DNA of 64,000 nt from Sulfolobales archaeon (GTDB lineage Archaea > Thermoproteota > Thermoprotei_A > Sulfolobales > AG1): NCBI GenBank assembly GCA_038867615.1, contig JAWBYA010000001.1, positions 416,001-480,000 on the forward strand, given 5' to 3'. Shown in pieces: positions 14,489 through 33,792 of this stretch. The notes beneath the pieces are model-generated. The model was not told the DNA's origin. It ran no database searches and saw only the letters and a program-made list of their open reading frames with translations. The position numbers and the translations under genes are program-made. Within the stretch, counting starts at the first letter, position 1. Every line of letters starts with the position of its first letter.

Positions 14489-14696
14489 GGGGTTCAGGTT
14501 TCATAGCGGTTTTCTCTATCAACCGCTCTTCCCATATCCTCGGTCTCGGCTCAATGCTGTGGGGAACCCTACATCCTGGCTTTTATTTAACCCGCCTGCT
14601 TGGGTCTCTATCTCTATCCTCGTTGAATGTTACCATAGGACTATGATCTAATATCAATCCATATAAACCATCGTGAAACTCGAAACAGTCGGCTAC
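14489..14696 (-). mobile_element. 208-bp non-autonomous element, internally deleted sibling of 33143-33486
   Basis: Same termini (GGGGTTC...GGCTAC) and collinear similar internal blocks, e.g. TGCTGTGGGGAACCC, GGGTCTCTAT, TATAAACCATC, CGAAACAG. Confidence 0.75.
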
Positions 14697-32573: not shown

Positions 32574-33627
32574 ATGCCAGAGAGATCACAGTAATAATAA
32601 CCATTCTGGGCACCTTAATACCGATCCTAGCCACTCTTGGGGGTATGACATACCGGCTTGGAAGGAGGTTTGCATTAATAGAAGCAAGGTTTAGAGAAAT
32701 AGACAGAAGATTCGAAGCTATAGACAAGAGATTCGAGAACATTGATAAAAGATTCAGCGAGCTAAAAGAATACGTAGATACAAGATTTAATGAATTAAAA
32801 GTCTATGTTGATTCAAGGTTCAATGAATTGAGAGAATATGTTGACTCAAGGTTTGATGATCTGAAGGGCTATGTTGATTCTAGGGTTTTGAGAATCGCTG
32901 AGGCTTTTAGATCTTACCAGGAGTTCTTCATAGAGTATCTATCTTATCAAGGCGTAATCAGGGCTCCTCTAGAGGCTGAAATGCTTAAGAACGAGGCTTC
33001 CAGAATGATGAAACTAGCAACAATGAACCCCCTAACCAAGGAGGAGTGGGAGAAGATCAAGTACTACTTAGAGAAGGATCAATTGACACTCGAAGAAGCA
33101 TTAGAATTCAGAGAGCTTGCTAGAAAGGTTACAGACGAGTATGGGGTTCGGGCTTCATTGCGGTTGATTTTTATACCAACTGCTCTTCCCTTGGCTTCAT
33201 GGGCCTCAGGGCTCCTTTCATTGGAGCCCTTATCATTGGCCTCCACCCATTCGGGGTGACCCTAACCCACAGCTCCCCTTCATAGATTTTCTCTGGTTCA
33301 TTGCTGTGGGGGAACCCCCACATCCTGGATCTCTTTACCTCTACCCCGCCCACTCGGGTCTCTATCCCCACCCTCATTGTTGGGCGGGCATCCCCATTAG
33401 AATAATAGAGCTTATATAATGTTCCACAGAGAAAAATTCGATATCAACCCCTATAAACCATCACGAAATCCGAAACAGCTGGCTACGGTGATAGACCTGA
33501 GGCTTGGAAGCTACACATACTAGCATCAATAAGAGTGGGAGAAGCGATGAGGAGAATGAAAGAAGAAATGGAGAAGAAGAAAGAGAAAGAAAAACAGGAG
33601 AAAGAAGGATCTAAGCAGGAAGGTTAG
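32574..33627 (+). pseudogene. PaREP-type coiled-coil repeat gene, split by a 344-bp insertion and frameshifted near the start
   Basis: ...RKVTDEY | insertion | GDRPEAWKLHILASIRVGEAMRR...stop 33625-33627; removing one AG from ATGCCAGAGAGATC puts ATG 32574 in frame with the hydrophobic N-terminus; IDxRF and YVDSRF repeats. Confidence 0.8.
33143..33486 (-). mobile_element. 344-bp non-autonomous IS607/TnpB-derived element (MITE-like)
   Basis: Interrupts a gene exactly, no target duplication, GG at both junctions, sibling at 14489-14696, no transposase ORF; family assignment inferred. Confidence 0.8.
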
Positions 33628-33792
33628 GTTTAATACTAGCTATTCTACCCTTAGCTTCGCTATCACCAGGATCTCTTCGGTGGGATCTCCTTAGTGCTGT
33701 AGGAAGCCCTTGCATATTGGTATATCCCTGCCTATCCATCGAGGGGCTCTGCCCCGCGCTATATATGAGGTTTGAGTAGATGCTGGTTTTTG

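Follow-up and report, generated by a model that had tools for sequence, protein, structure and literature searches.

A protein-less, MITE-like IS607-type element with an omega-RNA-like module interrupts a coiled-coil gene in a Sulfolobales archaeon

A gene for a coiled-coil protein is interrupted in the window (the 64-kb stretch of DNA analysed here) by 344 nt that read in the opposite direction. What is this insert, from which kind of mobile element does it derive, and may it express a guide RNA, as was proposed by a sequence-only reading of the same DNA? That reading had noticed that removal of 33143-33486 restores the reading frame. In-silico excision indeed joins ...GAG TAT / GGT GAT AGA CCT... 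in frame and results in a 212-aa ORF ending at 33627, while in its present state the host ORF runs into a stop at 33259, within the element. The host protein matches no Pfam family above the cut-off. Orthologues that are not interrupted occur in two genomes of the same genus (G003:C15 near 106213 and G002:C18 near 81844).

The empty sites of these orthologues contain GG only once, at ...GAGTATGG/TGATAGACC in G003 and at ...GAGTATGG/CGATAGACC in G002. The occupied site in the window reads TATGG, then GGTTCGGG...GGCTAC as the element, then GGTGAT, with GG at both junctions. Thus there is no duplication beyond the GG core, which agrees with the crossover at GG without target duplication that had been postulated. 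A GG core dinucleotide without target-site duplication is a characteristic of IS607 elements. As GG is shared by both junctions, the boundary is ambiguous by 2 bp, and both versions are given in Table 1. The comparison indicates that the element entered the 3' part of the coiled-coil gene after the split from two sister species.

The order of features on the minus strand is the one that had been read from the letters, with a left end, a TATA box, and a hairpin-bearing stretch that is rich in G+C (56.1% in 33143-33395, versus 44.9% for the window). A minus-strand ORF (33171-33377) encodes ...KRSRMWGFPHS..., and the resemblance of its RMWG stretch to tnpB 3' ends, which that reading had pointed out, holds, as the peptide matches the C-terminus of the parent TnpB described below. 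Terminal inverted repeats had been said to be absent. This holds for long ones, but short imperfect inverted motifs exist in both ends, which is typical of IS607 elements. The sole inverted repeat that was computed is between 33154-33168 and 33443-33457 (15 nt, 80% complementary), and by eye the subterminal TTCGG...GGTT stretches show an inverted match of ~23 nt at ~70%. A tRNA scan of the window returned none.

Table 1. Features of the interrupted gene, the inserted element and a related fragment. Positions are those of the window; the strand is given relative to it.
Feature	Position	Strand	Remarks
Interrupted host gene	32645-33627	+	Uncharacterised coiled-coil protein; intact form 32645-33142 plus 33487-33627
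Whole non-autonomous element	33143-33486 (or 33145-33488)	-	344 nt; tnpB orientation is the minus strand of the window
Left end, element positions 1-47	33440-33486	-	Starts GTAGCC...; motifs TTCGG, GGTTTAT and GGTTGAT recur inverted in the right end
Left-end flank TCACC, target/TAM-like motif	33487-33491	-	Family consensus HGCC; ACC in this copy is rare
TATA box TTATATAA, former tnpB promoter	33412-33419	-	Palindromic; homologous to AACATTATATAAG of the parent
Hairpin CCCGCCCA...TGGGCGGG	33345-33388	-	Derived from the zinc-ribbon coding part of tnpB
Omega-RNA-like module	33143-33328	-	Last 186 nt of tnpB plus right end
H1 helix	33306-33321	-	
TGTGGGGGTTCCCCCACA hairpin	33305-33322	-	
H2 helix	33251-33265	-	
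H3 and H4 helices	33202-33241	-	
H5 helix	33160-33183	-	
H6 helix	33245-33249 with 33149-33153	-	
Right-end terminus ...GAACCCC	33143-33149	-	Last CC is the core dinucleotide
Predicted guide segment ATACTCGTCTGTAACCTTTC	33123-33142	-	Flank read through from the right end; predicted from position
Degenerate family fragment, 153 nt	14544-14696 (G000:C1:430544-430696)	-	Element positions 1-46 and 108-197; 76-83% identity; without right end

The insert belongs to a large family of repeats, as had been suspected. A genome-wide BLAST search gave 112 HSPs, which were chained into 79 loci: 2 are tnpB-bearing, 17 are full-length (the insert being one of them), 21 are shorter but two-ended, and 39 are partial. 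This repeat pattern is far beyond chance. The reported sibling at 14.5 kb was found as well, in the form of a degenerate fragment. Identity between the insert and other copies in the genome is 77-90%. The unit recurs in either orientation at dozens of unrelated sites, most of which are not orthologous, and only 6 groups with shared flanks are found among 52 full-length copies from three species. Most insertion sites are species-specific, and the family seems to have been active after speciation. Two sister species carry similar family loads.

The parent is a tnpB-only element of 1564 bp (G000:C1:11137-12700), which is present in one intact copy. Pieces of the insert map to the parent left end (G000:C1:11137-11188), its TATA region, its zinc-ribbon region and its last 190 nt. 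The TATA counterpart of the parent is located 27 nt upstream of the ATG of tnpB. The hairpin at 33345-33388 aligns to C1:12382-12444 of the parent, where the stem is TGCCCAC...GTGGGCA; it also matches within tnpB of another genome (G028, L049:1892-1938) and is present in both the MFE and the centroid structure. Judged by these alignments, the 344-nt insert is an internal-deletion derivative of the 1564-bp element. The alignments trace a line of descent from an IS607 element with tnpA and tnpB, via the tnpB-only form of 1564 bp, to the 344-bp form and on to shorter ones of 200-290 bp. What all forms have in common is limited to ~89 nt at the left side and 47-67 nt at the right side.

The family has both ends of its parent but no transposase ORF, occupies many unrelated sites and shows insertion polymorphism, all of which are characteristics of MITEs and PATE-like elements. 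Since there is neither a target-site duplication beyond the shared GG nor a long terminal inverted repeat, we call the element MITE-like and do not consider it a classical MITE.

A parent with tnpA, tnpB and the same ends had also been named as something to look for. A parent with these ends is found in the genome, but it is tnpB-only; intact tnpA-tnpB elements are seen in other families. At G027:C5, G027:C39 and G030:C16, homologues of tnpB (60-63% identical) are immediately preceded by tnpA, which codes for an IS607-type serine recombinase with an N-terminal MerR-like HTH and a resolvase catalytic domain. These tnpA-bearing closest autonomous relatives represent two other families of the order. 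Their left ends, GCC/GTAG...GGTTTATAAGGGTTGATATT, and right ends, ...AATGAAGCC.AAACCCC/ (slashes mark the junctions), are homologous to those of the element, and the left end of the insert also aligns with the left ends of the autonomous IS607 relatives L047 and L046. By analogy with work on IS607 of C. botulinum, the left end is probably the region bound by TnpA(Ser).

At the left-end junctions, G is found at -3 in 44 of 47 cases, C at -2 in 43 and C at -1 in 41, while G at -4 occurs only once. The left flank is GCC in 36 of the 47 junctions and ACC, as in the insert, in 2. The right end terminates with CCCC in 43 of 50 junctions; right-end terminus and left flank (GCC) differ at -3.

An intact IS607-type tnpA was not found in this assembly (94.44% complete), which contains two remnants only. 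There is one resolvase/invertase-type gene on C23, which was considered as the missing transposase and rejected, because it has the HTH behind an N-terminal catalytic domain, at the C-terminus, which is the order of resolvases/invertases and not that of IS607. A second IS607 lineage of the genus (L055/L056) is a possible mobiliser, with ends that are only weakly similar to those of the mini-element. According to our model, TnpA(Ser) supplied in trans would move the element via a circular intermediate, with recombination at the GG/CC core and a target preference for HGCC on the tnpB strand.

We consider the insert to be a miniature protein-less (MITE-like) deletion derivative of an IS607-family insertion sequence, which is the best explanation for the whole and to which we assign a probability of roughly 0.8. 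The sequence-only reading had already described it as a transposase-less and TnpB-less derivative of an IS607-type tnpA-tnpB lineage, and the parent as well as the tnpA-linked relatives with their homologous ends support this. Two observations had been named that would speak against that view: ends that match no IS607 or IS605 element, and the lack of a conserved RNA structure among the copies. Neither was made, as the ends match IS607 elements and a structure is conserved in 57 sequences.

The omega-RNA-like module shows 88% nucleotide identity to the 3' end of the parent, up to the parent right end. Even in other families of the order its nucleotide identity is still 74-77%, although a DNA search does not detect the remainder of tnpB there. 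Beyond approximately element position 245, the peptide is not conserved among homologues while nucleotides and base pairs are. The structure was analysed with 37 base pairs in 57 sequences, using slid controls and 500 shuffles. As the RNAalifold consensus gave only 21 pairs, the helices were specified by hand, and they were drawn from the same sequences that form the test set. With these helices, 89.9% of the cells are paired (35.7-57.3% in slid controls), 143 cells are changed on both sides (10-45 in the controls) and covariation scores 0.259 (controls 0.053-0.099). The observed value was reached by none of the 500 shuffles in four of the five measures and by 39 in the fifth. Compensatory changes are mostly lineage-level and thus represent few independent events. 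RNAalifold pairs columns 24-31 with 62-69 in an alternative helix, which is in competition with H1 and in which no pair is changed on both sides. The fold has a z-score of -3.12.

The module thus has the position of an omega RNA, being located at the tnpB 3' end and overlapping the right end, from where a guide would be read out of the flank, and it has a covarying secondary structure, with the helices drawn by hand and few independent events behind the covariation. The palindrome of H5 could equally be a protein-binding DNA site. Rfam gave no match at gathering score in the whole window and only chance-level matches to the element when E values up to 10 were accepted (E 0.32 or worse); a model of this lineage may be lacking in Rfam. 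No RNA run is listed as containing the stretch, and 0 reads from four sets (three metatranscriptomes of hot springs and a set of contigs) aligned to 32600-33700, which speaks neither for nor against a transcript.

How might such an RNA be produced and used? A TATA-like word occurs at the same place in 33 of the 38 two-ended ORF-less copies, and the mean major-allele frequency in the TATA box is 0.94 (52 copies). Transcription is predicted to start ~25 nt downstream, near 33390-33396. The TATA box would drive a leaderless transcript of ~250 nt through the right end into the flank, yielding an omega RNA with a guide that is set by each insertion site. The single cognate TnpB could load this RNA and recognise the empty donor site, so that retention of the mini-element would be favoured. 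We regard this function, a TATA-driven guide RNA loaded by the cognate TnpB for retention, as a serious possibility that falls somewhat short of an even chance. With its non-consensus flank ACC and two stem mismatches, the insert itself might be poorly suited as a substrate, even should the family function in that way.

There is a nearly even chance that the RNA module is inert. The 186-nt tnpB tail would then be kept only because the cis-acting right end is contained in it and adjoins it, no guide RNA would be made or used, and the TATA box would be a relic or belong to the region recognised at the left end. Among the two-ended ORF-less members, half (19 of 38) have no module core and still form multi-copy subfamilies, and thus the RNA is not needed for propagation. 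Post-insertion singleton substitutions occur at 0.36 per column in paired and unpaired columns alike and are not rarer in the TATA region (0.56; 52 copies); this equality of paired and unpaired columns does not support selection acting on individual copies. For IS607 of C. botulinum, a left end of 40 bp and a right end of 60 bp are reported to be enough for excision (bioRxiv 10.1101/2023.11.20.567912). The deviating flank and stems of the insert also fit an inert module. However, the commonest single form, that of 344 nt, keeps every helix and the promoter, while the purely coding ~75 nt that separated two of the helices have been deleted. Retention of the TATA-like word and of a structure that shows compensatory changes where the peptide is not conserved likewise argue against an inert module.

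The proposed guide RNA would have one partner in this genome, as the cognate TnpB is present as a single intact copy. The parent TnpB (P0001, 457 aa, encoded at G000:C1:11373-12743) matches PF07282 with E 7.9e-14 and scores 63.9 bits against the NCBIfam model guided_TnpB, under the cut-off of 100. With dN/dS values of 0.13-0.15 between the copies of the species, tnpB is under purifying selection. Zinc ribbon and TNB domain are present, and the alignment shows that the RuvC-I Asp and the RuvC-II Glu are kept. At the RuvC-III position, where the catalytic Asp is found in the aligned Cas12f and TnpB proteins of solved structure, the protein has Gln. It differs in this respect from a canonical TnpB nuclease, and cleavage is not assured. 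Of 16 homologues sampled, 15 have RQ and one has RH at the RuvC-III position, and Gln is also found in tnpA-linked relatives. A domestication of tnpB was considered and rejected, as the tnpB elements of the three species share no flanks. The Gln clade may already appear in the supplementary tables of PMC10691335.

If guide RNAs are made by many copies, the mini-elements could be hyperparasites, with dozens of promoter-driven, site-programmed guide RNAs competing for the one resident TnpB with its RuvC-III Gln. We consider this rather unlikely. If true, one protein gene would sustain or police genome-wide RNA-only mobile elements, maybe with non-canonical catalysis or by binding without cleavage. 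The TnpB clade with RuvC-III Gln that is invoked here is crenarchaeal and widespread.

It seems quite improbable that the mini-elements guide a TnpB which binds without cleaving and thus serves in regulation or targeting, as do TldR-type repressors, and not in homing by cleavage. The replacement of the catalytic Asp, its prevalence among the sampled homologues and its presence in tnpA-linked relatives, and the purifying selection on the protein speak for this, and inactivated as well as rearranged TnpB clades have been described (PMC10691335). However, Gln is also found in homologues inside complete, apparently mobile IS607 elements, so that it has to be regarded as normal for a protein of transposons and not as a sign of exaptation. 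Conserved RuvC substitutions often represent a rearranged, still active site, according to the same source (PMC10691335), and the other two catalytic residues are retained. In addition, the tnpB copies of the three species are at different loci, so tnpB has not been immobilised.

We give very little credit to an assignment as an IS200/IS605-type PATE that is moved as single-stranded DNA by a Y1 transposase. A perfect subterminal hairpin (H5) is located ~17 nt from the right end, and tnpB-only parents are typical of the IS1341 group, but Y1 transposases (PF01797) were found neither in the genome itself nor in any of the five relatives searched, the closest autonomous relatives code for a serine recombinase, and the GG core is found at both junctions and once in empty sites. 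Hardly any credit is due to the view that the insert is intron-like (an IStron or an archaeal intron), being spliced from the host mRNA and leaving the gene functional: the exact restoration of the frame is a prediction of serine-recombinase insertion, while the element is antisense to the host gene, has no Rfam match to group I or II introns or to any other family with E values up to 10 accepted, beyond chance-level ones, and occurs at its dozens of unrelated sites in both orientations.

The IS607 derivation accounts for a disrupted gene and for a large repeat family (79 loci) in an uncultured hot-spring archaeon. The natural IS607 deletion series marks the parts that are dispensable for spread and those that are kept along with the promoter, namely every RNA helix. 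In this way the series maps what an archaeal, thermophilic IS607 omega RNA minimally comprises, together with the likely TAM (HGCC). Expression of the RNAs, if it occurs, would make the family a clear example from archaea of elements that consist of a guide RNA only and live off a TnpB in trans. The Gln-for-Asp RuvC-III clade merits biochemical study in itself. The element is real and well explained, and it cleanly represents an already known type of selfish DNA.

The novelty implied by the sequence-only reading was overstated in this respect, as ORF-less omega-RNA elements served in trans (PMC10055086) and crenarchaeal IS607 MITEs (PMC2678158, published in 2009) are already in print. The PATE-like ORF-less IS200/IS605 elements of Geobacillus stearothermophilus (Meers et al., PMC10055086) are described as protein-less, with both ends and an omega-RNA template, as in our case, and both kinds of element are presumed to depend on TnpA and TnpB in trans. 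They differ in being of the Y1 type, with single-stranded DNA, hairpin ends and TAM/TEM, whereas the element described here is of the serine-recombinase IS607 type and additionally keeps the former tnpB promoter.

The ~260-nt MITEs of Staphylothermus marinus (Anderson et al. 2009, PMC2678158) resemble our element by their description: they are IS607-related, crenarchaeal, multi-copy and protein-less, and they interrupt genes. IS607 elements of that organism are reported to include one with two ORFs and several that are tnpB-only; the MITE resembles the region upstream of tnpB, and inverted repeats were noted in that report, which predates omega RNAs (PMC2678158). In a literature search of partial coverage, archaeal IS607 mini-elements with an omega RNA were described by none of the papers found. 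SisTnpB1 of Sulfolobus islandicus (bioRxiv 10.1101/2023.03.06.531077) is, like the TnpB considered here, archaeal and thermophilic, and has a guide RNA derived from the right end. Unlike our element, its source is of the IS200/IS605 type, has an AT-rich TAM (TTTAA) and is not protein-less, and its activity has been shown experimentally.

The bacterial CboIStron/IS607 system of C. botulinum (bioRxiv 10.1101/2023.11.20.567912) shares with the archaeal element the GG core at both junctions, the absence of target duplication and of long inverted repeats, short inverted motifs in both ends, and the position of a structured RNA behind tnpB, in overlap with the right end. TAM and right end differ at -3 there (TGGG/TCGG) as they do here (GCC/CCC), and gene-less mini-elements are reported to be excisable in trans. 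The element described here differs in being archaeal (protein relatives point to a crenarchaeote of hot springs), in having no group I intron and in having its core as CC on the tnpB strand. Furthermore, this copy is gene-less, and its partner TnpB carries Gln in RuvC-III.

The 344-nt block at positions 33143-33486, which the sequence-only reading had taken for an insertion, is indeed one. It splits a plus-strand ORF starting at 32645, its removal in silico yields an open frame (...TDEYGDRPEAWKL...) up to the stop at 33625-33627, and the uninterrupted orthologue is present in two species of the same genus, G002 and G003. Their empty sites, ...GAGTATGG|CGATAGACC in G002 and ...GAGTATGG|TGATAGACC in G003, have a single GG, while in the window GG flanks the insert on both sides. 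Thus, the insertion is real and postdates the split of these species, there is no duplication past GG, and the boundary of the insert is ambiguous by 2 bp. The interrupted gene codes for a coiled-coil product which has extra tandem heptad-like units of type RF.E(L/I) compared to the orthologues. The restored protein is 212 aa long; counted from the corresponding Met, the orthologues reach about 180 aa.

In the genome that contains the window (G000, with the window at C1:416001-480000), both ends of the element occur about 1.5 kb apart at two loci, one with an intact 457-aa ORF, the other with a frameshifted copy. The ORF codes for TnpB (PF07282, E 7.9e-14); it scores 63.9 bits against NCBIfam guided_TnpB, under the cut-off of 100, and solved Cas12f and TnpB chains match it weakly. 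As tnpB is on the minus strand of the window, the left end of the element is at 33486 and the right end at 33143. The anatomy guessed from the sequence, that of an element devoid of its protein genes, was borne out by piecewise alignment to the intact parent, and the positions proposed for the TATA word, an 18-nt palindrome and a ...RMWGFPHS... frame are all correct. The GC-rich stretch pointed out in the same reading (33143-33395) has 56% G+C, compared to 45% across the window. Relative to the parent, the element lacks about 190 nt between left end and TATA box, almost the whole of tnpB, and another ~75 nt encoding the RuvC-III region. The zinc-ribbon coding region forms a stem in the parent too, with different letters than in the mini-element. 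The parent tnpB frame is open through the entire RNA module and the right end, with its stop 43 nt into the flank, so that the last TnpB residues depend on the insertion site.

A BLAST search of G000 with the insert resulted in 112 HSPs, which were chained into 79 loci. The supposed sibling at 14.5 kb is among them, but as a partial piece only. Among the 21 loci with shorter two-ended copies there are at least four recurrent types, with 3-5 copies each. All of these forms retain a left segment of about 89 nt and a right segment of 47-67 nt, so that nature has in effect mapped the minimal ends. Only six flank-sharing groups occur among 52 full-length copies from the three species (among the matches listed for G002 and G003), and most insertions are therefore species-specific.

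Coordinates of the mini-element, its parts, its family and related elements (G, genome; C, contig; element positions are counted from the left end on the tnpB strand)
Feature	Location	Remarks
Interrupted gene	window 32645-33142	
RNA module	window 33143-33328	helices H1-H6
Helix H1	window 33306-33321	
Alternative partner of H1 3' arm	window 33265-33272	
Partial piece near 14.5 kb	window 14544-14696	
Parent element	G000:C1:11137-12700	intact ORF
Parent tnpB	G000:C1:11373-12743	457 aa
Parent tnpB beyond right end	G000:C1:12700-12743	
Frameshifted tnpB element	G000:C1:50097-51743	
Parent left end	element 1-53	
Parent TATA region	element 64-91	27 nt upstream of tnpB start codon
Parent zinc-ribbon coding region	element 99-158	
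Last 190 nt of parent	element 159-344	88% identity
tnpB-bearing elements		2 of 79 loci
Full-length copies		17 of 79 loci; 334-356 nt; 77-90% identity to window copy
Shorter copies with both ends		21 of 79 loci; 202-337 nt; several recurrent deletion patterns
Partial or one-ended pieces		39 of 79 loci; some at contig ends
Shorter form a	element 1-189+278-344	
Shorter form b	element 2-170+253-344	
Shorter form c	element 1-89+156-250+298-344	
Shorter form d	element 1-137+280-342	
Examples of shorter forms	C1:20283-20539; C5:28448-28699; C2:98644-98894; C6:73628-73883	
Decayed IS607-type tnpA remnants	G000:C7:65739-65980; G000:C4:194160-194299	two different genes
Resolvase/invertase-type gene	G000:C23:6589-7361	205-aa open frame, at contig end
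Further IS607 lineages	G003:C4:18657-20536 (L055); G002:C73 (L056); G002:C35 (L057)	

No Y1 transposase was found in G000 or in any of the five relatives searched. When G000 was searched by tblastn with IS607 TnpA proteins of its relatives, only two decayed remnants were detected, beyond which the assembly shows no sign of a serine transposase; the mini-element copy C7:66950-67283 is located about 1 kb away from one of them. The only resolvase-domain gene of G000 was rejected as a candidate, having the domain order of resolvases/invertases; this serine recombinase gene is followed by G+C-rich inverted repeats and is unrelated to the mini-element family according to BLAST. In other families of the order, tnpB homologues with 60-63% identity to the parent (two loci in G027, one in G030) are located immediately downstream of a gene whose product combines an N-terminal MerR-like HTH with a resolvase catalytic domain. 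This is the IS607 TnpA arrangement. These autonomous elements have ends homologous to those of the mini-element: on the left a flank ending in GCC, the element start GTAG... and then a GGTTTATAAGGGTTGATATT block, on the right the finish ...AATGAAGCC.AAACCCC. In G000 copies, the left flank has G at -3 in 44, C at -2 in 43 and C at -1 in 41 of 47 junctions, with G at -4 in only one, and the CCCC terminus is found at 43 of 50 right junctions. The window copy has the rare flank ACC (2 of 47). Two additional IS607 lineages are present in the sister species, with an intact tnpA and a different tnpB that encodes the canonical Arg-Asp of RuvC-III. These lineages resemble the mini-element only faintly at their left ends (GTTTATAAG...TTGA) and are candidates for cross-mobilisation.

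In a DNA search of 31 genomes, the entire mini-element was found only in G000, G002 and G003. Its last ~186 nt, however, are detected with 74-82% nucleotide identity in all five genomes of the genus and in three other families, where the remaining tnpB sequence has diverged too far for DNA detection. The predicted transcript from the TATA box to the right end (-95.1 kcal/mol, z = -3.12) folds better than shuffles. On an alignment of 57 distinct copies of this segment (A1), RNAalifold gives a cautious consensus of 21 pairs. Six helices were drawn by eye and then counted in A1, and were thus chosen from these same sequences; 89.9% of their cells are standard pairs versus 35.7-57.3% with partners shifted by 1-3 columns, both sides are changed in 143 cells (10-45 in the shifted controls), and the covariation score is 0.259 (0.053-0.099). 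The observed value was never reached in 500 shuffles for four of the five measures; for the fifth, the count of pairs showing a double change, it was reached in 39 of 500. Pairs are swapped between lineages in H4 (three adjacent pairs), H3 (one) and H5 (two), the compensatory changes falling largely between two or three lineages. The window copy has mismatches in H2 and H5, and no Rfam family matched the window or the element.

The initial third of the module (H1, H2) doubles as coding sequence for the peptide M(W/R)GFPHS...ELW.GVT, which is kept in homologues down to 54% identity, and so protein constraint contributes there; downstream, peptides diverge while nucleotides and base pairs persist. 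H5 is a DNA palindrome, for which a dimeric protein could equally account. The 3' arm of H1, CCCACAGC, can alternatively pair with GCUGUGGG, 35 nt downstream. This helix (A1 columns 24-31 with 62-69), which excludes H1, is preferred by RNAalifold, and no double changes are seen in it; such mutually exclusive pairings would be in line with a switch or pseudoknot-like folding.

A potential partner exists in each of the three species, as one intact cognate tnpB element, located at different loci and with tnpB under purifying selection (dN/dS 0.13-0.15 over 373 codons). Typical TnpBs have Arg-Asp in RuvC-III. The cognate TnpB has Asp at the RuvC-I and Glu at the RuvC-II position, but Gln where solved relatives carry the RuvC-III Asp. 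Among 16 homologues hand-picked across the best 120 of 240, this site is Arg-Gln in 15 and Arg-His in one, and tnpA-linked relatives also carry Gln. By source names, the Gln clade includes Ignisphaera, Zestosphaera, Desulfurococcaceae, Fervidicoccaceae and others (homologues P0004-P0121). All 16 share a Glu within the conserved ...ELW.GV... stretch of the C-terminus. Clades with conserved RuvC-III substitutions have been described and are considered to be often active (PMC10691335).

We give a probability of roughly 0.4 to the reading that RNAs of this family are made and loaded by TnpB. Three metatranscriptomes from the same study contributed no reads over the element, which speaks neither for nor against its expression. 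In its favour, the commonest form retains the promoter and every helix while pure coding sequence between the helices has been lost, and a TATA-like word is present in 33 of 38 two-ended ORF-less copies. However, the module centre is gone in 19 of these 38, which still form multi-copy subfamilies, so that the RNA is dispensable for spread. In addition, singleton substitutions are even over 52 full-length copies from three species (0.36 per column in both paired and unpaired positions, 0.45 at the left end, 0.56 around the TATA box), and single copies thus show no sign of selection. The RNA function of the mini-element is to be considered putative.

In the literature searched, with partial coverage, we found no description of an archaeal IS607 mini-element bearing an omega RNA. 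A GG/CC core at both junctions, the absence of duplication and of long inverted repeats, and the short inverted motifs are all described for IS607. For Clostridium botulinum IS607, TGGG is reported as both the target and the TAM, with TCGG as the right-end terminus (bioRxiv 10.1101/2023.11.20.567912); as in our family, flank motif and right-end terminus differ at -3. PATE elements "often encode" omega RNAs, necessarily used in trans by TnpB of other elements, according to Meers et al. (PMC10055086), and Anderson et al. describe a ~260-nt MITE in 14 copies, along with five IS607 elements, in Staphylothermus marinus (PMC2678158). Both protein-less elements with an omega RNA and crenarchaeal IS607 MITEs are thus known kinds, and the mini-element joins them.
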